From the IMG/VR virus record IMGVR_UViG_3300042691_020932, positions 1-64,000 of that record: a stretch of 64,000 bases of DNA; one strand, given 5' to 3'. The stretch comes from a virus. The notes under the pieces are model-generated. The model was given only the letters and a program-made list of their open reading frames with translations. It was not told where the DNA came from and did not search any database. Within the stretch, counting starts at the first letter, position 1. Each line of letters starts with the position of its first letter. The translations under genes were made by a program, and so were the position numbers. Positions 54,523 to 63,957 of this stretch are shown here, one piece after another.

Positions 54523-54551
54523 CATACTATTAGGACACTTTACGGGGCCCA
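54523..54551 (-). repeat. 29-bp cassette/promoter element, copy 1
   Basis: TGGGCCCCGTAAAGTGTCCTAATAGTATG. Confidence 0.95.
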
Positions 54552-54554
54552 GTA

Positions 54555-54734
54555 TTAGTCACTCACCCTACTTTGAATATCACTGAGAATCTCAGCTATC
54601 ACCTCTACGCTATCCCTATCGTTCTGCTCTAGTTGTTGCATAACGTCTTGCAGTTGTGGTAGGATACTGATGACTAGTTGCGGCACCCTGATAATACTCA
54701 TTTCACCCAAATTCTTATACTTTAGTGGTCTCAT
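54555..54734 (-). CDS. Small putative DNA-binding (ribbon-helix-helix-like) protein (not in ORF track)
   Basis: MRPLKYKNLGEMSIIRVPQLVISILPQLQDVMQQLEQNDRDSVEVIAEILSDIQSRVSD; basic N-terminus, IRVP strand, then helices. Confidence 0.6.
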   Translation of the reverse strand: MRPLKYKNLGEMSIIRVPQLVISILPQLQDVMQQLEQNDRDSVEVIAEILSDIQSRVSD

Positions 54735-54786
54735 AGTTTTGTTAACATAACTGGGGGTATTTAGGGGGGGTTATGTTAACAAAACT
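54735..54786 (-). promoter_or_regulatory. Perfect 17-bp inverted repeat with a late promoter (CTAAATA) in the loop
   Basis: Arms AGTTTTGTTAACATAAC (54735-51) and GTTATGTTAACAAAACT (54770-86); tatttag at 54758-64. Confidence 0.85.
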
Positions 54787-55001: not shown

Positions 55002-55030
55002 AGTATAAGATGCTGAGGGCATTGTGTCAA
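55002..55030 (-). promoter_or_regulatory. sigma70-type promoter
   Basis: TTGACA-17-TATACT. Confidence 0.85.
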
Positions 55031-55320: not shown

Positions 55321-55347
55321 AAAAAAAGACCTCACGAATGAGGTCTC
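55321..55347 (-). terminator. Intrinsic terminator ending the early small-gene array
   Basis: AGACCTCA-TTCG-TGAGGTCT followed by a U-tract. Confidence 0.9.
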
Positions 55348-55356
55348 TATGTATAT

Positions 55357-55593
55357 TCAATCAAGTGCTAATCGGTAACGAGCATAATCCTCTGCATCGC
55401 TACGTTTGCGGAATCGTGCTTCTTCTCCTTCAAATCGTAGAGGCAAATACCTATACTTCTTACCTTCCTTAGTCATAACAATTCGGGAGAATAGGTGCAG
55501 TGAGTAACTACCATCCTCACTTCTTTCCTTCTCTTTCTTGACAATGAAAGGGAGAACTTGTTGATCGTTGAATGACTGTTTAGAGAGTAACAT
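55357..55593 (-). CDS. Hypothetical protein
   Basis: 78-aa ORF directly upstream of the terminator. Confidence 0.7.
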   Translation of the reverse strand: MLLSKQSFNDQQVLPFIVKKEKERSEDGSYSLHLFSRIVMTKEGKKYRYLPLRFEGEEARFRKRSDAEDYARYRLALD

Positions 55594-55607
55594 GACGGAA
55601 TTGATTA

Positions 55608-55793
55608 TCAGAAACGAATGATAAGTTGATCTAGACCAAAGACATCAGAATCATATGGAGCAGACACTAACTCTACACCTGACTGATAATACATTGGCAA
55701 ATCATCAAATCCAGAATCACAAATGACGACATCTTGATTGAGTTGATCTTCGGTGAGAGATTGCAGTTGTGAGAGAAGTTCTTTGTAAGTCAT
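55608..55793 (-). CDS. Hypothetical protein
   Basis: MTYKELLSQLQSLTEDQLNQDV, a common phage N-terminus. Confidence 0.75.
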   Translation of the reverse strand: MTYKELLSQLQSLTEDQLNQDVVICDSGFDDLPMYYQSGVELVSAPYDSDVFGLDQLIIRF

Positions 55794-55972: not shown

Positions 55973-56100
55973 TGTACTAATTCAGCAGGACTTCCACAGG
56001 AGAGATAGAATTGAACCATCCTTTGTGCTTCATCAAGTGTAGGAAAGCTTTGCGTTCTCCATTGTTGTTGATAAGGCGTAAAGTATCGGATTGTGAACAT
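55969..56100 (-). CDS. Hypothetical protein (not in ORF track)
   Basis: MFTIRYFTPYQQQWRTQSFPTLDEAQRMVQFYLSCGSPAELVQ. Confidence 0.7.
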   Translation of the reverse strand: MFTIRYFTPYQQQWRTQSFPTLDEAQRMVQFYLSCGSPAELVQ

Positions 56101-56101
56101 T

Positions 56102-56278
56102 TTAGTTTTGATTGTTGGAATAAAGAATGTCTAGCATTTGTTGGTAGTAGTTATCTGCTTCTACCTCACATTGATGAGACTGAGTTGCATCTTCAATCTC
56201 ATATTGTTTCATATTAAGAGAGTGAATCACGTTGTCTAGAAGATTAGTCAGTGCTTCAATCTTTTGTTCGTTAGTCAT
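56102..56278 (-). CDS. Hypothetical protein
   Basis: MTNEQKIEAL...; start coupled to the upstream stop (TAATG). Confidence 0.65.
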   Translation of the reverse strand: MTNEQKIEALTNLLDNVIHSLNMKQYEIEDATQSHQCEVEADNYYQQMLDILYSNNQN

Positions 56279-56433
56279 TACAAACACCAATCAGCTCCTT
56301 CGGGATCGAATAACGTCCAGTTGCTAATATCTTGTGGGATGATATTATCTCGGGCAAAATCTCTTGCTTCTTGTTCAGTCTCAAACTCGTGAAAGTCGAG
56401 AATGTCATCATCGTTTTGGAGAAGATAAGACAT
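56278..56433 (-). CDS. Hypothetical protein (not in ORF track)
   Basis: MSYLLQNDDDILDFHEFETEQEARDFARDNIIPQDISNWTLFDPEGADWCL. Confidence 0.65.
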   Translation of the reverse strand: MSYLLQNDDDILDFHEFETEQEARDFARDNIIPQDISNWTLFDPEGADWCL

Positions 56434-56750
56434 CACTTAAGCACCATACCTTCAGTGAAAGGAATTGTGTTGTCATTATCTACAACAAACCATTCAAAGT
56501 CACGTTGAAAGATACGGGCATCATTTCCGTGAACTTTCAGAATAGCATTGAGACGTGATTTGGTGGTAGGAGTCTTATACCCACAGGTGTAAAGTTCAAG
56601 GAAGGTATCACCAATCGTTGCAATATGATTGCCATGAAGCATAACATATGAAGCATCACGTTCGGGCGAATAAGTTACCTCCGTGTTGTCATTTTTCCAG
56701 TCAGTGCAATCACAGATTGCTTTGTTCATTTGGGATTCGATCTTTCTCAT
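56433..56750 (-). CDS. Conserved phage hypothetical protein
   Basis: MRKIESQMNKAI...LHGNHIA...TTKSRLNAIL...FQRDFEWF. Confidence 0.85.
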   Translation of the reverse strand: MRKIESQMNKAICDCTDWKNDNTEVTYSPERDASYVMLHGNHIATIGDTFLELYTCGYKTPTTKSRLNAILKVHGNDARIFQRDFEWFVVDNDNTIPFTEGMVLK

Positions 56751-56768
56751 GGTAGGAAGTGTTGTGGT

Positions 56769-56797
56769 TATACTACTAGGACACTTTGGGTGGCCCA
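56769..56797 (-). repeat. 29-bp element, copy 2 (flank A)
   Basis: AACAAATAG-TGGGCCACCCAAAGTGTCCTAGTAGTATA. Confidence 0.97.
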
Positions 56798-56808
56798 CTA
56801 TTTGTTAC

Positions 56809-57063
56809 TCAGAACTTTTCGATCCATTGTTGAATCTTTTGCAGTGCAGTTTGTTGATCGTTACACTTACACTTGCGGAACTTGGTAGTGTTTAATCCCT
56901 TGGAAATTAGTTCCAGTTTGCCATCAGCAAGACAGAAGATTCCATAGCGTGAGTTATGAAAAATGTTGTTAATCCATGACTCTTGACTATCAGCACTGAC
57001 CTTAATAAAAGTGGAATTGCGCCCACTTAAAGTGCTATTGTCGATGTGAAGATAAGGGAACAT
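56809..57063 (-). CDS. Hypothetical protein
   Basis: 84 aa; WINNIFHNSRY..F and KFRK motifs. Confidence 0.75.
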   Translation of the reverse strand: MFPYLHIDNSTLSGRNSTFIKVSADSQESWINNIFHNSRYGIFCLADGKLELISKGLNTTKFRKCKCNDQQTALQKIQQWIEKF

Positions 57064-57067
57064 AATT

Positions 57068-57274
57068 TCAGAGAGAGAATACTTTATATGTCACAAGTTG
57101 GGAATCTCGATCATACTTTTCATAGGACCAAGTACCTTCGGTTTGTTCAACATAAGAGTGAACATTGTCATTGGAATCTTCTTTCCAAAAGGCACCAGTT
57201 TCAGGTTGGAAGAAATAACCAGAAGCGATAAGTGCGTCAGTGAATGTCATTGTGATTTCAGTGTTAAGTAACAA
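57068..57274 (-). CDS. Hypothetical protein, paralog of 59202-59426
   Basis: MTFTDALIASGY...H.Y.E...W.Y.K. Confidence 0.75.
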   Translation of the reverse strand: MLLNTEITMTFTDALIASGYFFQPETGAFWKEDSNDNVHSYVEQTEGTWSYEKYDRDSQLVTYKVFSL

Positions 57275-57277
57275 TAA

Positions 57278-57484
57278 TCAGGCAGCGATTGCAGACTCTA
57301 GACATACCTCACGGGTTTCCATGATAGCATAATCAAAACCCTCAACTTCTTCTAGGTGCTTTTGATAAGCAACAGCAGCAGAGAAACAATCAAACAAGCG
57401 GAGAGATTTGAAGTTTTCACCTTCATAATCATAACCACCGATTACAGCGTAGACTTTCATTTCGGACATTTGGGAAGCGTTCAT
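57278..57484 (-). CDS. Hypothetical protein
   Basis: MKVYAVIGGYDYEGE; in frame with the ATG of element copy 3. Confidence 0.8.
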   Translation of the reverse strand: MNASQMSEMKVYAVIGGYDYEGENFKSLRLFDCFSAAVAYQKHLEEVEGFDYAIMETREVCLESAIAA

Positions 57485-57510
57485 ACTACTAGGACACTTT
57501 GGGTGGCCCA
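57482..57510 (-). repeat. 29-bp element, copy 3 (flank B)
   Basis: TGATAAACAC-TGGGCCACCCAAAGTGTCCTAGTAGTATG. Confidence 0.97.
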
Positions 57511-57529
57511 GTGTTTATCATCATCAATA

Positions 57530-57685
57530 TCAAGACTTTTTATAATCTCGATTCATTGCAGCAACTTGATAGGATGAACGTGCCACAATTTCATTCCTAG
57601 AAGTGTGTTGAGATTGTGCGCGATGATTATATCCTACCCACACAAAACCTTGTGTTTTAAGGTCACATGCAACATTGTAAATCAT
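57530..57685 (-). CDS. Hypothetical protein
   Basis: MIYNVACDLKT...; fills the gap between neighbours. Confidence 0.55.
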   Translation of the reverse strand: MIYNVACDLKTQGFVWVGYNHRAQSQHTSRNEIVARSSYQVAAMNRDYKKS

Positions 57686-57689
57686 GAGA

Positions 57690-57923
57690 TCAAGAATAGT
57701 AAAGATTTGCAATTTCATTGCGAAGACGATTCAGAGTCTCCCAGTTTGAAATATATCCAACCTCGGAAGAGATGCTATCATCGAAGGTCGCATATCCAAG
57801 GACATCGACAATATCGTTCACATACAATCCTTGGTGAGCATTGAGTTCTTCATCATCAAACTGGTTGAAGTAACGAACCAGAAAGTTGAGTGCTTCAGTG
57901 TAAAGTTCTTGAGTCATTTGCAT
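57690..57923 (-). CDS. Hypothetical protein
   Basis: 77-aa acidic ORF. Confidence 0.65.
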   Translation of the reverse strand: MQMTQELYTEALNFLVRYFNQFDDEELNAHQGLYVNDIVDVLGYATFDDSISSEVGYISNWETLNRLRNEIANLYYS

Positions 57924-57941
57924 TTGATAGTATTTGGCAAT

Positions 57942-58109
57942 TCAGCGAAGTGTCAGAGAGCGAGTATCAATCCAAACACCTTTATCAGTACCCATTCGGA
58001 AACTATGATCCCACACAAAGTGTGTCGCTTCCTGATTGGTAAGAATAAACTGTTTGCAGAGAATCTCTACTGCTTCAAAGATATTTGAGAATCGGAGAGT
58101 TGTAGACAT
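57942..58109 (-). CDS. Hypothetical protein
   Basis: MSTTLRFSNIFEAV...; first gene after copy 4. Confidence 0.65.
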   Translation of the reverse strand: MSTTLRFSNIFEAVEILCKQFILTNQEATHFVWDHSFRMGTDKGVWIDTRSLTLR

Positions 58110-58130
58110 TTTGGGAAGTCTGTAAGGGGT

Positions 58131-58159
58131 TATACTACTAGGACACTTTGGGTGGCCCA
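58131..58159 (-). repeat. 29-bp element, copy 4 (flank C)
   Basis: AGTTTCAAATGATTAG-TGGGCCACCCAAAGTGTCCTAGTAGTATA. Confidence 0.97.
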
Positions 58160-58306
58160 CTAATCATTTGAAACTAAAATCGTCGGACCTTCAACTTGAC
58201 AAAACTCCAACAGATAGTAATCAATAGTGATTCCAAGTTGTGATGCTTCAGTATAAAACTGTTGATATTGTTGACCGTCAAGAATAAAGAAATCAGTTTC
58301 AATCAT
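58160..58306 (-). CDS. Hypothetical protein
   Basis: MIETDFFILD...ASQLGITIDYYLLEF. Confidence 0.7.
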   Translation of the reverse strand: MIETDFFILDGQQYQQFYTEASQLGITIDYYLLEFCQVEGPTILVSND

Positions 58307-58451
58307 GGGGTGCGATAATGTCAGCGACAGTGTGTAATGTGGTTGAAGTTGTGTTACGAACTGCAGGAGAAAGTATAAACGCAACAGCAAAGATCAGGAG
58401 AATTGTCTTCACTTTGTCGGGTGACTTGAATGTTAGACTTTTGCGTGACAT
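58299..58451 (-). CDS. Small membrane-anchored protein (not in ORF track)
   Basis: MSRKSLTFKSPDKVKTILLIFAVAFILSPAVRNTTSTTLHTVADIIAPHD. Confidence 0.6.
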   Translation of the reverse strand: MSRKSLTFKSPDKVKTILLIFAVAFILSPAVRNTTSTTLHTVADIIAPHD

Positions 58452-58456
58452 TCAAA

Positions 58457-58672
58457 CTAAGATCCACCGTACACATATTCGATTACACCTGCCTCATCAA
58501 GTCCTACAGATTCGATGACAGTGAATCGTGCATAGTTATCAAACTCATCTGCATAGTAATCTCCAACCTCTTTGATAAACAACTCGCGGCATTGTTCTTT
58601 GTTCTCAGCAGCAATAACTACCATTCCAGAGGTATAATCAGAGAGGACATTGTTAATGATAAACAGTTTCAT
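58457..58672 (-). CDS. Hypothetical protein
   Basis: LSDYTSGMVVIAA...YVYGGS. Confidence 0.75.
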   Translation of the reverse strand: MKLFIINNVLSDYTSGMVVIAAENKEQCRELFIKEVGDYYADEFDNYARFTVIESVGLDEAGVIEYVYGGS

Positions 58673-58687
58673 GGTTTTAGTTAAGTT

Positions 58688-58918
58688 TCAGTCGAAGCGA
58701 GAGGATACATCAGGACCAGGATTCTCAAGGTGTGCAACACTATCAGCAACACCTTCAGCAGTTAGTGCAAATTGTACTTTTTTGCCTTCGTGATAGATGT
58801 CAAAGACAGATTGGACGTAAGGTGTTAGGTTGCCTTGCGAATCCCAGGCATTTCGTGTATGCGAAGTCTCAACGATTTCGTAGACTTTAGAGGTGAGAGG
58901 TGAAGTGTAGGTCATCAT
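58688..58918 (-). CDS. Hypothetical protein starting at the ATG of copy 5
   Basis: MMTYTSPLTSKVYEIV...; no internal Met alternative. Confidence 0.7.
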   Translation of the reverse strand: MMTYTSPLTSKVYEIVETSHTRNAWDSQGNLTPYVQSVFDIYHEGKKVQFALTAEGVADSVAHLENPGPDVSSRFD

Positions 58919-58944
58919 ACTACTAGGACACTTTGGGGGGCCCA
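58916..58944 (-). repeat. 29-bp element, copy 5 (flank A)
   Basis: AACAAATAG-TGGGCCCCCCAAAGTGTCCTAGTAGTATG. Confidence 0.97.
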
Positions 58945-59205
58945 CTATTTGTTTCGGGTGGATTCAGTTGTTACACTCTCCACCAATTCTTGCAGTTCAT
59001 CGTCATCATAATAGTGCGACAGTTCTTCCATCAATTCACTCTCTTTATAGTCAATCATACTATCACAAATTGTGTCAATCGCAAATGCACACAAATCGCG
59101 CACATCCATATTGTCAACAACTCGCTCAGCATAGAGTTGAACGATCTTGGAAAGTTGGTCTTGAGAAAGTGTCATTTTGTTTGTAGGATTAGGAAGGGAA
59201 ATCAT
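58945..59205 (-). CDS. Hypothetical protein
   Basis: Y.ERVVDNMD..DL motif, acidic. Confidence 0.75.
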   Translation of the reverse strand: MISLPNPTNKMTLSQDQLSKIVQLYAERVVDNMDVRDLCAFAIDTICDSMIDYKESELMEELSHYYDDDELQELVESVTTESTRNK

Positions 59206-59426
59206 TGAATAACAGTGCTAGTATCAGGATTGAAAGTAACTTCGGAGATCACATCAAAATCATCACTCATCTTGACATAATTCCAGAGAGTGTCAGTCTC
59301 ATCATCCACATTTTCCTGATAAAGGTGAATGAAACCGTCATCACCTTGTTTTACATAACAACCATCATAATTCTCATCATCAAATACATAACCAGATGCA
59401 ATCAGTGCTTCAGTAAATGTCATCAT
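59202..59426 (-). CDS. Hypothetical protein, paralog of 57068-57274
   Basis: MTFTEALIASGY...H.YQE...W.Y.K. Confidence 0.75.
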   Translation of the reverse strand: MMTFTEALIASGYVFDDENYDGCYVKQGDDGFIHLYQENVDDETDTLWNYVKMSDDFDVISEVTFNPDTSTVIQ

Positions 59427-59557
59427 TTGCAGTAGTTAGGGTTAATTTGGCAGAACTGATCTGCTTGGCGTTCTTGATACTCACTGGTCGTTGCGTGTGC
59501 TATCAAACCAAAGCGAAGACCGAGTGCTAGAGTAGCAATCAAAAAAGCAATTCGCAT
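59423..59557 (-). CDS. Small secreted or membrane protein (not in ORF track)
   Basis: MRIAFLIATLALGLRFGLIAHATTSEYQERQADQFCQINPNYCK. Confidence 0.65.
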   Translation of the reverse strand: MRIAFLIATLALGLRFGLIAHATTSEYQERQADQFCQINPNYCK

Positions 59558-59703
59558 CAGACTTCATCCCTCATTTCGGTGAGTTTGTCATACAGAGCAG
59601 GAATATCTGTCTCTGTAAGTTCAGTCAAATAGCACCAATCGCTAGACTCAAGAACTGCAAGAAGAGTATCAATCTCTTCAAAAGTGAGAGTGGTTTGTGT
59701 CAT
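59557..59703 (-). CDS. Hypothetical protein (not in ORF track)
   Basis: MTQTTLTFEEIDTLLAVLESSDWCYLTELTETDIPALYDKLTEMRDEV. Confidence 0.65.
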   Translation of the reverse strand: MTQTTLTFEEIDTLLAVLESSDWCYLTELTETDIPALYDKLTEMRDEV

Positions 59704-59705
59704 AT

Positions 59706-59891
59706 TCAATCAACGACAGAGTAACAAGCAACCCAGGAAGGAATCCCAGAGAGTGATAACGAACCATTGCGGGCATCGCAATAGTCTTGTGCGTCATCTT
59801 CAGTGTAGAAAGGTCCAATATACTCGGGAGAATTGAGTGCATTGGAATCGAAGCGAACTGTGAATGTTTCAGTCATTGTGGTTTGTCTCAT
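59706..59891 (-). CDS. Hypothetical protein
   Basis: YIGPFYTEDDAQDYCD; in frame with the ATG of copy 6. Confidence 0.75.
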   Translation of the reverse strand: MRQTTMTETFTVRFDSNALNSPEYIGPFYTEDDAQDYCDARNGSLSLSGIPSWVACYSVVD

Positions 59892-59917
59892 ACTACTAGG
59901 ACACTTTGCAGGGCCCA
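59889..59917 (-). repeat. 29-bp element, copy 6 (flank B)
   Basis: TGATAAACAC-TGGGCCCTGCAAAGTGTCCTAGTAGTATG. Confidence 0.97.
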
Positions 59918-59924
59918 GTGTTTA

Positions 59925-60251
59925 TCAGTTACGCATCAGGGAAAGATAACCATCCTCGGAGAGAGTATCCTCAGACAGGTTGACATTGCGAGCACAAGAG
60001 ATTGCATCAGCAAAGTTATCGAAAGTACCAAAGTTTTTCTGATTACCACACCAGCAACCTTTGTACTCATAAATCATTGCTTCCACAGTAAATACATCGT
60101 TTTTGAAGTTACGATCTACACTGTGCTTGATATAAACTTTCCCGTCATTTCGGGTGTACTTATCGAAGATGGAAGACTTGAAAGTAAGAGTGAAATCAGT
60201 GATGAAATCACCAGTGAGATTGATGCTTTTTTGGAAGAGAGTTTCAGTCAT
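59925..60251 (-). CDS. Hypothetical protein (single-gene cassette)
   Basis: 108-aa ORF filling the interval between copies 7 and 6. Confidence 0.75.
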   Translation of the reverse strand: MTETLFQKSINLTGDFITDFTLTFKSSIFDKYTRNDGKVYIKHSVDRNFKNDVFTVEAMIYEYKGCWCGNQKNFGTFDNFADAISCARNVNLSEDTLSEDGYLSLMRN

Positions 60252-60275
60252 TTAGTGGTTTTTCGTTTGAGTCCT

Positions 60276-60304
60276 TATACTACTAGGACACTTTAGGTGG
60301 CCCA
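60276..60304 (-). repeat. 29-bp element, copy 7 (flank C)
   Basis: AGTTTCAAATGATTAG-TGGGCCACCTAAAGTGTCCTAGTAGTATA. Confidence 0.97.
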
Positions 60305-60308
60305 CTAA

Positions 60309-60452
60309 TCATTTGAAACTCACATTCACTCCAACAATTCTAGCAGTAGGATTGCGTACTTTTGCTGTCTCGCGTGCATCTTTTGGAGAGTTAGCATATA
60401 CTTCCTCCTTAAAGACTTTGCCACCAACGTAGAGATCAACGATGTACTTCAT
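60309..60452 (-). CDS. Conserved cyanophage-type small protein (not in ORF track)
   Basis: MKYIVDLYVGGKVFKEEVYANSPKDARETAKVRNPTARIVGVNVSFK. Confidence 0.8.
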   Translation of the reverse strand: MKYIVDLYVGGKVFKEEVYANSPKDARETAKVRNPTARIVGVNVSFK

Positions 60453-60589
60453 GTGCTTGTTTGTATTTTAGAAAAAATTGATGATTTCACTGCAGTGGAT
60501 GACCTTTGACCCGTGTGCAGTGAAATTGCAGAAAAATCAGGTTTTTGGTTGAGTGGTGGACTGGGTTCTCGGTGAGACTCAAGTGAGAA

Positions 60590-60784
60590 TCACAGGGTCT
60601 GCCAGTCTTGTGCCTCTTTCAAGTTAGAGTTAAAGAACTTTTGCAAGATAGACTCAATTACAGGTTGCCACTGTTTGTCTTTAATTGAGTCACGATTCTG
60701 TGCTTCGACAAGAAACTTAAGGATGCAAGTCTCTTCGTTTGGAGTGAAGTCAACGCGAGTGAAAGTGTAACCGTCAGTCATCAT
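60590..60784 (-). CDS. Hypothetical protein
   Basis: 64 aa; coupled to the upstream ORF. Confidence 0.7.
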   Translation of the reverse strand: MMTDGYTFTRVDFTPNEETCILKFLVEAQNRDSIKDKQWQPVIESILQKFFNSNLKEAQDWQTL

Positions 60785-61014
60785 TTAATCCAGCAACTTT
60801 TGTTTGATTTGTTTTGTGCTCTTGCAAAAGAACCAGCATCGTGGCATAATTTAGAGAGTTTAATTAGAACCTCACGATCTTTCACTGGACGCTCAAATGC
60901 AAGATCATTGTTCATACTTAGAGAGACCAAATCTCTCAACAATCTTTCACATCGAAGTGCCTCATTGATTGTAAAGTTTTCGTTGATAATTGGGCGAAAG
61001 TTCTTCATAATCAA
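60781..61014 (-). CDS. Hypothetical protein
   Basis: 77 aa; 4-bp overlaps. Confidence 0.6.
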   Translation of the reverse strand: MIMKNFRPIINENFTINEALRCERLLRDLVSLSMNNDLAFERPVKDREVLIKLSKLCHDAGSFARAQNKSNKSCWIK

Positions 61015-61178
61015 ACAGGAAAAACTTCTACAGAACGAATAAGATTTGTGCGATCTTGTGCTAGGTAATCATCAGCGATTTTACCACACGATGAACGAGA
61101 TTGAATAATCTTTTCCTCATAAAGATTCTCATCTTCATCAGGAACCCAATACTCAATCAGCATACGATAGGTTTTCAT
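61011..61178 (-). CDS. Hypothetical protein (not in ORF track)
   Basis: MKTYRMLIEYWVPDEDENLYEEKIIQSRSSCGKIADDYLAQDRTNLIRSVEVFPV. Confidence 0.65.
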   Translation of the reverse strand: MKTYRMLIEYWVPDEDENLYEEKIIQSRSSCGKIADDYLAQDRTNLIRSVEVFPV

Positions 61179-61426
61179 CAGTAGTGTGCCTCAGAGTAGT
61201 CAAGAACTTCGCTGTACTTAGCGATACCATCATAGCAACGCTTTGCCATTTCAGAATCACCTTCAGCGATGTAACCTTTCAGAAACTCAAAGCAGTATTT
61301 GATACGCTGCTCTGGAGTAACTTTAGCGAGTTGTTGTTGCTTACGCTCATAGGCAGCGTTGTAGGCAAACATCTCACGATCTTCGAGGGAGATGTTGTGA
61401 AACTTGCGGTCGGTAGTGTTATTCAT
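61178..61426 (-). CDS. Hypothetical protein starting at the ATG of copy 8
   Basis: MNNTTDRKFHNISLEDREMFAYN... Confidence 0.7.
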   Translation of the reverse strand: MNNTTDRKFHNISLEDREMFAYNAAYERKQQQLAKVTPEQRIKYCFEFLKGYIAEGDSEMAKRCYDGIAKYSEVLDYSEAHY

Positions 61427-61452
61427 ACTACTAGGACACTTTGCAGGGCCCA
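61424..61452 (-). repeat. 29-bp element, copy 8 (flank A)
   Basis: AACAAATAG-TGGGCCCTGCAAAGTGTCCTAGTAGTATG. Confidence 0.97.
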
Positions 61453-61459
61453 CTATTTG

Positions 61460-61714
61460 TTACCAGCGGCCTTGTTGTATGAGAATCTTTTTGATTTCAG
61501 TATAAATGAACTGACGAAGTTTAGTGTCGGCAGTGTTATCAAAAGCATAATAAAGACGATTCAAATACTCATTCTGTGTCAGTCCAATGTTACCATCACC
61601 ACCGATTTCATTGAGTGATGAACCTGCCTGCACACGATTCTTTCCAAAGTTGCCAGACACACGCCCAGTTGTTCTCAGTTTGGGCTTTATCTTTGAGAGA
61701 TTAGAGTATGTCAT
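61460..61714 (-). CDS. Conserved basic hypothetical protein
   Basis: SNLSKIKPKLRT.G.VSGNFG...YLNRLY. Confidence 0.8.
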   Translation of the reverse strand: MTYSNLSKIKPKLRTTGRVSGNFGKNRVQAGSSLNEIGGDGNIGLTQNEYLNRLYYAFDNTADTKLRQFIYTEIKKILIQQGRW

Positions 61715-61896
61715 TTGAATTGTTCTAGAACATCAATAAAGTGTTGGATACAATCTTTGGGGATGTGGATGGTTTGGTATCCAGGACCATTACCATCTTC
61801 CACACTCACAGTGCCATACTCATCAGCAGTAAAATCAAAACTCCAACCATCTTCTTCGTGTTCGATTTTGATGTGTTTGGTGATAGTGTAAGTCAT
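61711..61896 (-). CDS. Hypothetical protein
   Basis: 61 aa; IHIPKDCIQHFID. Confidence 0.7.
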   Translation of the reverse strand: MTYTITKHIKIEHEEDGWSFDFTADEYGTVSVEDGNGPGYQTIHIPKDCIQHFIDVLEQFK

Positions 61897-62066
61897 TCAT
61901 CCTCCTCATAAGGAAACATTTCGTCGTATTCTTCGTCAGTTAGAGTGAGATACTGAACATCAGCATTTTTGTGCTCTTCAGCATACACTAATTGATAGTG
62001 TGCGAAAGAAGATGGGTCACTGCTAGCATACTCTACCAGACCATCAACAATACAAAGGTAGTTCAT
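61893..62066 (-). CDS. Hypothetical protein (not in ORF track)
   Basis: MNYLCIVDGLVEYASSDPSSFAHYQLVYAEEHKNADVQYLTLTDEEYDEMFPYEEDE. Confidence 0.65.
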   Translation of the reverse strand: MNYLCIVDGLVEYASSDPSSFAHYQLVYAEEHKNADVQYLTLTDEEYDEMFPYEEDE

Positions 62067-62293
62067 CGTGCCAAAGATAAGTTGTATTTGATAATCAAAA
62101 GGTCTCGCACTTGTTCTCGGTCGATACTATCACCACAGAACGGCACTTCTTTAATCTTTGCAATCCTGATAATGTCGTTGGTTGCTTTACGAACTAGAGT
62201 ACGATTTGCACCCATCGGATATAATCCATCAGGACCATAGAACGACATCACATAATCAATGAAATCGTTAATAAACTCTTTAGACATAATCAC
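62063..62293 (-). CDS. Conserved phage hypothetical protein
   Basis: FIDYVMSFYGPDGLYPM...FCGDSIDREQVRD. Confidence 0.8.
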   Translation of the reverse strand: MIMSKEFINDFIDYVMSFYGPDGLYPMGANRTLVRKATNDIIRIAKIKEVPFCGDSIDREQVRDLLIIKYNLSLAR

Positions 62294-62724
62294 TTAGCGT
62301 AGAGATAACCACCAGACCAATCGGCATTCTCCAGCAGATATTCACGATCTTTGATCAATCGCAGATCATAACGAACACCTTTGGCAGGAGATTTCCAAGT
62401 CGCAGACTTATATACTTCGCCAGTGTTCTTGTCAATGAAGCAATGAACGGAGCGGGAACCGCCACCACTCACAAAGATGACTTTGTGATACTTTTTACCA
62501 GTCTCAACAGTATAATCAATGTCACACTTGCCAGACTTGAGTTCATCAACCTTGCGAATGTGATACTCTACATTCTCACCACGCTCAGCAGAAGTCTGAT
62601 GACCGCGAATAGAATACTGACGATAGTTGTCTTTCAGTGCTTCAATCAGCAGGAGAGTGTGCTTATACACATTCTCTGCGATGGTTTGTTTTGCTTGTGC
62701 TTGCATTTCAGTGGTTGTACTCAT
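62290..62724 (-). CDS. Conserved phage hypothetical protein
   Basis: GKKYHKV...SVHCFIDKNTGEVYKSATWKSPAKGVRY...ADWSGGYLY. Confidence 0.85.
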   Translation of the reverse strand: MSTTTEMQAQAKQTIAENVYKHTLLLIEALKDNYRQYSIRGHQTSAERGENVEYHIRKVDELKSGKCDIDYTVETGKKYHKVIFVSGGGSRSVHCFIDKNTGEVYKSATWKSPAKGVRYDLRLIKDREYLLENADWSGGYLYAK

Positions 62725-62750
62725 ACTACTAGGACACTTTGCAGGGCCCA
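62722..62750 (-). repeat. 29-bp element, copy 9
   Basis: TGGGCCCTGCAAAGTGTCCTAGTAGTATG. Confidence 0.97.
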
Positions 62751-62751
62751 A

Positions 62752-63666
62752 TTACCAACTCTTTGCCATTGTGAAGTTTGCGTGAGAGAATGTCTCGCGA
62801 TCCACTACTTTGAAGATGCCGTAATCGTTTTTGATTACATAACCCTCGTGGAAACTTGCCACATCCCACAGGAAACATTCGATGTCGTCTTCTTCGTGAA
62901 TGAAGAGGAACAAATCATCCTTGATTGTCTTCACCAACTTCCAAAGCCGGATGAGGTTCTTGTCACAATCACATTTTTCTGCAATTTCATCCTCACAGAT
63001 GATACGTTGCTCCCTGATGCAAGCATTGATCTCTTTTTTGATTTGTGATGCCTTGCGATCACTCACAAACTCACACAGAGTTGACATTTGCTTGGCAAAC
63101 TTACACACATCTGCCAAATCCTCACGATAAGGATTCAGGGACACTGCAGGTTGCACGAATAAGCATTTCTTAGTGCTTGCAAACTTGCTGGTGATAGGGT
63201 GTGCTACCATTTCAGGCAGACGCTCACCAGTGTAGTAAGTATGGGGAGCAACGATAATCTCTTGACGAACAACCTCAGGAAACTTATAGGTAATGGTGTT
63301 GGGTTTGAATGTATCAAGACCCTTACCGAAACCAATCCAATCTCCCTGATACACATTGTTAGTGCGAGGCAGGAAATCCAAGCAATAGATGAGGATTTGC
63401 GTTACGCGAGGTTGACCGCCAAAATGGGTAAAGATGTCGTCCTCGTTATAGCACAGGCGAATCTTTTGCTTATTAAATGCTGCTTTGGTGCAGACAAAAA
63501 ACTTACCATTCTCAGGATTAGTGCCCCAAACAATAGCAGGAGCGCCATCCATCTTGACACTGATAGTAGAATCAGCACTGAACCAATCGAGCACCGAAAG
63601 ATCACCATTTAGGATAGAATCTTCGGGATGTTCGATATGTTTGTTTTGCATTGGTTGCTTACTCAT
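62752..63666 (-). CDS. DUF6267-like protein with ligase-type nucleotidyltransferase motifs
   Basis: HIEHPED, KMDGAP (motif I KxDG), YQGD, HEGYV (motif IV), FKVVDR (motif V). Confidence 0.7.
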   Translation of the reverse strand: MSKQPMQNKHIEHPEDSILNGDLSVLDWFSADSTISVKMDGAPAIVWGTNPENGKFFVCTKAAFNKQKIRLCYNEDDIFTHFGGQPRVTQILIYCLDFLPRTNNVYQGDWIGFGKGLDTFKPNTITYKFPEVVRQEIIVAPHTYYTGERLPEMVAHPITSKFASTKKCLFVQPAVSLNPYREDLADVCKFAKQMSTLCEFVSDRKASQIKKEINACIREQRIICEDEIAEKCDCDKNLIRLWKLVKTIKDDLFLFIHEEDDIECFLWDVASFHEGYVIKNDYGIFKVVDRETFSHANFTMAKSW

Positions 63667-63692
63667 ACTACTAGGACACTTTGCAGGGCCCA
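63664..63692 (-). repeat. 29-bp element, copy 10
   Basis: TGGGCCCTGCAAAGTGTCCTAGTAGTATG. Confidence 0.97.
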
Positions 63693-63695
63693 GAA

Positions 63696-63899
63696 TCAAA
63701 CCTCTGCCAGTTTCTGTAGACGATTGCGAATATCAAAGAGTTCCATATCATCCATATCTACAGCATCCAAATCTACAGGAGCAAACTCCTCCAGATTTAC
63801 ACTACCATCAGAATAAATGGGGGCATAGTACAACTCATCGCCATCTTCTTGCGATAGAGTATAAACGCAACCGTGATTAGTGGAAGTAACGAAAATCAT
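63696..63899 (-). CDS. Hypothetical acidic protein
   Basis: MIFVTSTNHGCVYTLSQEDGDELYYAPI... Confidence 0.7.
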   Translation of the reverse strand: MIFVTSTNHGCVYTLSQEDGDELYYAPIYSDGSVNLEEFAPVDLDAVDMDDMELFDIRNRLQKLAEV

Positions 63900-63925: not shown

Positions 63926-63957
63926 AAAGGAGCACCTGCTAAATTACAAGTGCTCCT
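63926..63957 (-). terminator. Hairpin, possible weak terminator or RNA-stability element
   Basis: AGGAGCAC...GTGCTCCT arms; short U-tract. Confidence 0.45.

Follow-up and report, generated by a model that had tools for sequence, protein, structure and literature searches.

We analyzed a 64,000-nt stretch of viral DNA (the window), the first 64 kb of the 82.6-kb contig of IMG/VR virus record IMGVR_UViG_3300042691_020932 (completeness estimate, 38%), in which a short element containing the motif TGGGCC recurs between small genes. The source of the contig is an uncultured freshwater T4-like cyanomyovirus. An earlier note on this sequence had described three sorts of DNA directly upstream of the element, flanks A, B, and C, that succeed one another with a strict period of three. 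We found that these flanks are the semi-conserved outer module of the element itself rather than sequence outside it, and that TGGGCC is one allele of its middle module. The complete signal, which spans about 45 to 50 nt (~48 nt) and heads groups of small genes in the hyperplastic region of this cyanomyovirus, is composed of a stop codon with a 7-nt A/T-rich linker, a 10-nt lineage-specific box, and a shared box, AAAGTGTCCTAGTAGTAT. The order of the flanks is probably a historical accident of this genome and represents neither a duplicated unit nor an ordering of cassettes.

The sequence TGGGCC-N4-AAAGTGTCCTA occurs 10 times in the window, compared to 0.06 copies expected by chance, and 16 times in the whole contig, between 54.5 and 73.2 kb. 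Every copy is on the minus strand, and all 16 sit between small open reading frames (ORFs) of unknown function. Read on the minus strand, flank A (AACAAATAG) accompanies three copies (start of TGGGCC at 56797, 58944, and 61452), flank B (TGATAAACAC) two (57510 and 59917), and flank C (AGTTTCAAATGATTAG, 16 nt) two (58159 and 60304). The order A-B-C-A-B-C-A was thereby confirmed in plus-strand coordinates; in the direction of transcription it is A-C-B-A-C-B-A. The flanks are conserved at the level of DNA, as had been argued from the way neighboring genes read them: flank C closes the ORF at 58160 to 58306 as ...LVSND and the ORF at 60309 to 60452 as ...VNVSFK, and flank A is coding only at 58944, where the upstream ORF ends 0 nt before the element (7 nt at 61452 and 11 nt at 56797). 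The reported pairing of flanks with the 4-nt core that follows TGGGCC was also borne out, with A accompanied by ACCC, CCCC, and CTGC, B by ACCC and CTGC, and C by ACCC and ACCT. The statement that the core does not track the flank holds in this genome but not across the family, in which unrelated copies sharing a flank share the core in 21% versus 12% of cases. The dominant cores here, CTGC (5 copies) and ACCC (3 copies), are spatially clustered.

For comparison, we used 59 related IMG/VR stretches, from which 147 dereplicated element copies were aligned; the ORFs of these loci were clustered into families (g numbers), and cassette maps and junction tables were drawn. Comparison stretches are given as L numbers, and G001 is a contig syntenic with the array that was seen via L066 and L086. 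A second scan, for the shared half of the element, found more than 113 stretches. Among the dereplicated copies, positions -10 to -1 upstream of TGGGCC read T-R-A-t-w-R-w-w-A-[C/G/T], with A at -2 in 140 of 147 and TAA or TGA at -10 to -8 in 83 of 147. When the 9-mers at this position are ranked across the family, those of flank A (AACAAATAG) and flank C (AATGATTAG) are the two commonest and that of flank B (GATAAACAC) is seventh. Downstream of the core, copies continue with GTAGTAT[G/A]A and then an A/C-rich tract. Stops in all three reading frames fall within 21 nt at 15% of elements and at 7% of other gene ends, a weak effect.

TGGGCC was said to be invariant, which is true of this genome and of ~45 related contigs but not of the wider element family. 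Sister lineages that have AAAGTGTCCTAGTAGTAT carry ACTCACCTCC, GCTCACCTCC, TGGATCCTCT, AGGATCGTCC, or other boxes in place of TGGGCC-N4. Box types differ by genome (TGGGCC, ACTCAC, GCTCAC, TGGATC, AGGATC, TGAAGC, GGGGAC, and others) and are near-uniform within each, and for most of them the linker is almost invariant, as with TAAAGTT in 13 of 13 copies in L117. Since the linker is conserved and the box is swapped between lineages, the element has three modules. Further lineage boxes upstream of AAAGTGTCCTAGTAGTAT are TGAAGCCTCT, GGGGACGC.., GGGGGCCCCT, and TGTAGCTTGT (L086, which is G001:C1:8500-24500, and L117, L143, L124, L153, L158, and others).

G001 keeps AAAGTGTCCTAGTAGTAT and has a GCTCACCTYC box in 10 of its 14 copies, 8 of which stand behind ATTAAAATA; three more copies combine AATTAAAGTT with ACTCACCTCC. 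(The anti-Shine-Dalgarno end of 16S rRNA has the sequence CACCTCC as well.) Among these 13 GCTCAC- or ACTCAC-type copies stands a single copy with TAACAAATAG and TGGGCCACCC, before g158 (in L086, at 20896 in the record coordinates of G001), apparently a cassette brought in from a TGGGCC-type phage.

We found no conserved inverted-repeat fold in the element (fold z-scores of seven copies, -3.3 to +1.0), and an Rfam search with it gave no match at an E value of up to 1. A hairpin or dyad within the element was considered and rejected, as a small dyad appears only with AC-type cores and the z-scores are mostly insignificant.

Seven element sites of this genome are syntenic with sites in relatives: after g6, after g12, before g39, at the g16/g45 junction, after g29, before g158, and before g7. 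Five of their linkers (A, C, A, C, and A) look inherited because the syntenic sites of relatives have identical or near-identical counterparts. The linker of copy 8 (61425 to 61462; core CTGC), which heads g55 (61178 to 61426), is TAACAAATAG (flank A), and its TAA is the stop codon of g6 (61460 to 61714); after g6, L032 has TAACAGATAG. Copy 7 (60277 to 60320; core ACCT) heads g119 (59925 to 60251) and has the 16-nt flank C as the S-F-K-stop end of g12 (60309 to 60452) followed by TTAG, with the identical 16 nt behind the g12 orthologue in L064. In copy 5 (58917 to 58954; core CCCC), which heads g45, flank A is coding and the linker is AAACAAATAG, whose TAG is the stop codon of g16 (58945 to 59205); L041, L037, and L049 have ATAACAATAG at this junction. 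The 16-nt flank C of copy 4 (58132 to 58175; core ACCC) forms the V-S-N-D-stop end of g29 (58160 to 58306). The g29 orthologue ends in GTTGGTAATGATTAG in L064, which shares 13 of the 16 flank C bases, the other 3 having changed here, and in ...TAATGAATAG in L041. Copy 2 (56770 to 56807), heading g7 (56433 to 56750), joins linker TAACAAATAG (flank A) to TGGGCC plus ACCC and the shared box; before g7, L064 has TAACAAATAC plus ACCC.

Flank B, by comparison, is found at its two sites in this genome only, and both sites follow genome-specific cargo. At copy 6 (59890 to 59927; core CTGC), which heads g39 and has the linker TGATAAACAC, whose TGA is the stop codon of g119, this cargo is the relocated g119; relatives, with g33 upstream, have TATTGATTAG, TGATAGTTAT, or TGATAATTAT. 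At copy 3 (57483 to 57520; linker TGATAAACAC, core ACCC), which heads g158 (57278 to 57484), it is a unique 180-nt segment; at this site L064 has TAACAAATAC and G001 (the L066 contig) has TAACAAATAG. A 62-amino-acid (aa) minus-strand ORF at 57530 to 57718 has no homologue in the fetched loci; it overlaps g159 by 29 nt, with TGATGATGATAA following, and may be noncoding filler in place of the g51 of G001. Outside the run of seven, copy 1 (54524 to 54561; linker TGACTAATAC, core CCGT) is the last of the array and heads g14, and copies 9 (62723 to 62760) and 10 (63665 to 63702), both with the core CTGC, have linkers ending in TGGTAAT and TTTGATTC, respectively.

Crossover or gene conversion between copies, which the earlier note had proposed, is supported by genome-specific homogenization together with mosaic breakpoints. 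The 20-nt upstream halves of the element are uniform within a genome and different between genomes, and the 4-nt core is identical in 29% of within-contig pairs versus 12% of pairs between contigs. Pairs sharing at least 9 flank bases account for 5 of 120 in this genome versus 0.8% among the 147 dereplicated family members. Across contigs, the flank is shared in 70% of pairs whose genes are homologous on both sides, in 22% of those homologous upstream only, in 12% of those homologous downstream only, and in 1.7% of those with homology on neither side; the flank is therefore not tied to one upstream gene family but travels with either side. Element zones occupy 3.8% of positions and contain 17 to 21% of the ends of homology with relatives, ~5 times their share, and other gene boundaries (10.9% of positions) contain 37 to 38%. 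By our own count, this amounts to ~1.8 times as many homology ends per boundary at elements as at other gene boundaries, and mosaicism is therefore a feature of gene boundaries in general, with a moderate excess at elements. The slot of the g119 cassette differs among this genome (G000), L041, and G001. Contigs of four public DNA runs, mapped on 53 to 64 kb, break at the repeats and show gene-sized skips, mostly at gene boundaries (e.g., from 56099 to 56809 and from 55593 to 55790), and one low-depth joint (60253 to 62705) lies beside two elements. These joints, with short sides and the likeness set to 88, were not counted as evidence of recombination.

The copies of a genome are thus homogenized, and as the mechanism we infer ectopic homologous recombination or gene conversion. 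Such exchange would keep the copies within a genome alike, and some conversion tracts would extend past the element, covering the last few bases (up to ~16 nt) of the gene upstream. The same few linker alleles would in this way recur behind unrelated genes, in different frames and only loosely coupled to the 4-nt core. The two B linkers accompany the two genome-specific cargo replacements.

Several points weigh against this account and against an accidental order. The cycle is improbable under shuffling: the permutation test of flank labels that had been suggested for it gave a P value of 0.0017 for the 16 copies at any lag from 1 to 6, the 7 copies alone gave a P value of 0.047 at lags 1 to 3, and we counted 2 orderings with a strict lag-3 period among the 210 possible ones, with all three figures being post hoc. 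Gene conversion is read from patterns, and selection for a few workable linkers also gives recurrence. The best matches between the two halves of the array (A-A, C-C, B-B, and a gene pair, g40-g40) are colinear, which is what a broken duplication diagonal would look like. Finally, a metagenome contig could be a mosaic of strains joined at repeats.

Constraint without exchange is the alternative that survives best, although we consider it unlikely. Here, only a few linkers would supply a stop codon and an A/T-rich stretch, so that identity arises by convergence and order by chance. The semi-conserved bases at -10 to -1, with their preference for a stop codon at -10 to -8, are in keeping with this, as are the presence of all three flank types among the commonest in the family and the shuffling P value of 0.047 for the 7 copies alone. 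A site-independent model built from the base frequencies of the aligned copies, however, gives TGATAAACAC a frequency of ~4e-4 by our own arithmetic, yet it occurs in 3 of 147 dereplicated copies. The identity between the two C flanks spans 16 nt and runs into two unrelated coding ends, and with 20-nt upstream halves that are uniform throughout a genome, convergence at a dozen sites is implausible.

We regard as slightly less probable still that the cycle is the fossil of a tandem duplication. In this scenario, unequal crossing-over between element copies would have duplicated a unit of ~2.2 to 2.5 kb with three promoters, and its cargo would later have been replaced or have diverged, leaving the linkers and g40. 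A fine self dot-plot of the two halves contains the colinear matches A-A (39 nt), C-C (46 nt), B-B (40 nt), and then g40-g40, at offsets of 2,145 to 2,508 nt, but the rest consists of weaker, noncorresponding matches between elements and of short chance matches. The shuffling result for the 16 copies is also in its favor, and g40 has an equal relative position in both halves. Each g40 paralogue is the second-last gene of a B-to-A cassette: one at 57068 to 57250 on the minus strand (60 aa; 62% identity to the L041 copy) and one at 59202 to 59426 on the minus strand (74 aa; 82% to the L025 copy and 77% to the L051 copy). Paralogues are moreover common within the arrays of relatives, where g13, g16, g20, g21, g51, and g59 occur twice within single arrays (maps of L032, L049, L066, L037, and L028), which shows that genes of these regions are often duplicated locally. 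(A g29 duplicate in L032 consists of two tblastn matches only.)

However, the two g40 paralogues of this genome share only 37% identity (z = 17.9), and each has a better match among the orthologues of other phages (62% and 82% at most); their split therefore predates these phages. Relatives nonetheless have the same anchor genes and element sites with other linkers and no cycle, and identical flanks of 10 to 16 nt cannot be neutral relics of so old an event. Apart from g40, Smith-Waterman comparison between the units found no related family pair, and hhalign of all family pairs between them reached a maximum probability of 5.7%. Both B sites, furthermore, lie behind cargo unique to this genome. 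The old duplication of a three-cassette unit proposed in the earlier note is thus not upheld, as the syntenic arrays of relatives are nonperiodic and the two units have only g40 in common. Were the cycle nevertheless a fossil of array growth, which seems improbable to a similar degree, with unequal crossing-over duplicating multi-cassette units, cargo being replaced singly, and linkers being kept by conversion or selection, it would represent a route by which the hyperplastic regions of T4-like phages expand.

Two further explanations have very little probability. Three functional subtypes (e.g., classes of strength or timing) obliged to alternate, and so setting cassette order, would account for the strict cycle of this genome, but orthologous elements differ in linker type between phages, sister lineages use a single linker for all copies, the core and downstream bases are independent of the linker in this genome, the linker order of relatives lacks periodicity, and none of the 15 other arrays with at least 6 copies is periodic. 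The idea that subtypes set the order of cassettes is accordingly not supported. An assembly artefact, in which the assembler joined cassettes of co-occurring strains at repeats and so made the order, is equally hard to credit; many strain variants do co-occur in the same lakes and the public-run contigs do break at element copies, but 12 runs from 10 studies contain 92 to 96% of the 31-mers sampled from the stretch, the syntenic order of genes is shared with L064, L041, and G001, and independent contigs span flank B, g119, and flank C (59889 to 60478, X16) and the C junction (59945 to 60364, X20, no differences). An accidental order in an array whose copies exchange sequence therefore remains the reading we prefer.

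What the signal does can be judged from its position and composition. We think it somewhat better than an even chance that the element is a signal for transcription start peculiar to this lineage; TAGTAT would then act as a -10-like hexamer, followed by an A/C-rich leader of ~15 to 25 nt. It is always intergenic and in the same orientation as the genes; TAGTAT agrees with TAnnnT, whose three specified bases are nearly invariant among the copies; and where a copy lacks a terminal ATG, the first ATG of a long ORF lies a median of 21 nt downstream. An RNA-level intercistronic signal is a weaker candidate, to which we would give perhaps one chance in a few.

The promoter reading has its own difficulties. 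TGGGCC, which lies 16 nt upstream of TAGTAT, matches TTGACA at 3 of 6 bases, the -35 position falls in the box that changes with lineage, and a scan for the sigma70 consensus called no element copy. Of 399 distinct copies (loci L020 to L175), 277 have ATG as the last bases of the shared box (in the window, e.g., at 57483 to 57486, 58917 to 58920, and 61425 to 61428 on the minus strand), and this ATG is in frame with the gene in 264 of the 277, which is hard to square with transcription starting downstream of TAGTAT. When the copies were tallied a second time (267 with ATG among 384), 138 were found to have a second in-frame ATG, with a peak at codon 6, and the tract between the two ATGs is leader-like (41% A and 32% C). 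Because half of the ATG copies have such a second start after a leader-like tract, two start codons, one per transcript type, are possible. The g55 gene, however, has no second ATG before codon 19, and a transcript starting downstream of TAGTAT would miss its first one.

We found no convincing terminator between elements from 63692 to 55357, which also speaks for a promoter. Neither did any hairpin with a T-run on the transcribed strand adjoin an element; the one overlapping hit (57499 to 57511) is on the opposite strand and has a 5-bp stem. Terminator-like hairpins on the minus strand lie upstream of the window's part of the array (63928 to 63957) and near its downstream end (55325 to 55348). 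Just downstream of the latter, between the last two elements of the array, a near-consensus sigma70 promoter on the minus strand (TTGACA-17-TATACT, 11 of 12 bases; 55002 to 55030) marks what we read as a switch to a host-like promoter. Between g58 and g12, a 137-nt gap on the minus strand (60453 to 60592) has neither an element nor an ORF; it contains a hairpin with an 11-bp stem (TTTCACTGCAG...) followed by a T-run (fold z = -1.97), with similar DNA elsewhere in L024, L075, L074, and L065, and this hairpin is a candidate terminator or small RNA. The small ORF at 54555 to 54734 is adjoined by an inverted repeat at 54735 to 54786, with perfect 17-bp arms (AGTTTTGTTAACATAAC and GTTATGTTAACAAAACT) and an 18-nt loop.

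In its wider setting, the contig encodes T4-type large genes (major head protein, portal, sheath, and terminase), and its head protein has 82% identity to those of Synechococcus phages S-B05 and S-B43. Near-identical DNA is present in lake and freshwater metagenomes from 16 studies. At ~52 kb, G+C content changes from 0.31-0.33 to 0.40-0.43, and the run of small minus-strand ORFs starts there.

The closest described system is the promoter-early stem-loop (PeSL) cassettes of T4-type coliphages and vibriophages, known from RB49/phi1, T4/PST, and KVP40/nt-1 (Arbiol et al. 2010, PMC2839356; Comeau et al. 2014, PMC4122927). Like PeSLs, the elements described here are dense, conserved short repeats on one strand between small nonessential ORFs in hyperplastic regions of T4-like myoviruses; insertions, deletions, replacements, and relocated cassettes between related phages often end at the repeats; and each phage group has its own version of the sequence. 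Unlike PeSLs, they have no attached stem-loop or terminator, the -35 position is a lineage-variable box (here matching the sigma70 hexamer at 3 of 6 bases), and the upstream module is a stop codon with a linker rather than a hairpin. For cyanophage S-PM2, a lack of such dense PeSLs was reported (Puxty et al. 2015, PMC4503421). We likewise found no dense repeat of a comparable kind in the regions of S-SZBM1, S-CREM1, and S-PM2 that correspond to the array, and S-SZBM1, S-PM2, S-B05, S-CREM1, and DSL-LC02 had zero element copies at up to 3 mismatches. A BLAST search with a 36-nt query against 50,697 phage records gave no match.

A regulatory element reported by Doron et al. in 2016, of neither T4-like nor host-like type, is said to drive early genes in both Syn9 and P-TIM40 and to be widespread among cyanophages of the T4-like group. 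It reportedly has its setting in common with the element described here, namely, blocks of small ORFs upstream of baseplate genes. In Syn9 itself, we found no convincing element copy, the one loose match being within the gp186 coding sequence. The small-ORF region of Syn9 has a different repeat, GTGTATTCTATAAGAGTCAAAGG, with GTGTCCAC or GGTGGCAC ~30 nt upstream. The GTGTATTCTATAAGAGTCAAAGG repeat precedes small early-region genes in both Syn9 (L081, 46.3 to 51.3 kb) and DSL-LC02 (L079), and GTGTCC occurs in the element described here too, at a different distance from the -10-like hexamer.

The array also resembles an integron array in that short-ORF cassettes run in one direction and are separated by a repeated site that overlaps the ends of unrelated genes. 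An integron was nevertheless rejected: the 82.6-kb contig (38% complete) contains no match to PF00589 (tyrosine recombinase), a search in which the controls scored. Unlike attC sites, the element lacks a conserved inverted-repeat fold, and, unlike in integrons, it lies on the 5' side of gene groups, is promoter-like, and belongs to a lytic T4-like phage. Gene conversion is a familiar cause of concerted evolution in dispersed repeats, e.g., bacterial REP/BIME sequences and rRNA operons. As in those cases, a copy resembles the other copies of its genome more than it does its orthologues in other genomes; unlike in those cases, the repeats are viral regulatory signals of 45 to 50 nt, and homogenization extends to a box in which sister lineages differ.

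Taken together, these data indicate that the flank cycle by itself carries little biology and that the repeated early-region signal of this cyanophage clade consists of three modules. Its upstream 20 nt are homogenized within a genome and swapped between lineages, and this homogenization can overwrite the last codons of neighboring genes, a pattern that fits recombination-driven concerted evolution of viral regulatory DNA. For such arrays, a general rule follows: short identical "flanks" beside a phage repeat should first be tested as parts of the repeat. The lineage-specific box, in turn, suggests a hypothetical recognition partner that would coevolve with it.

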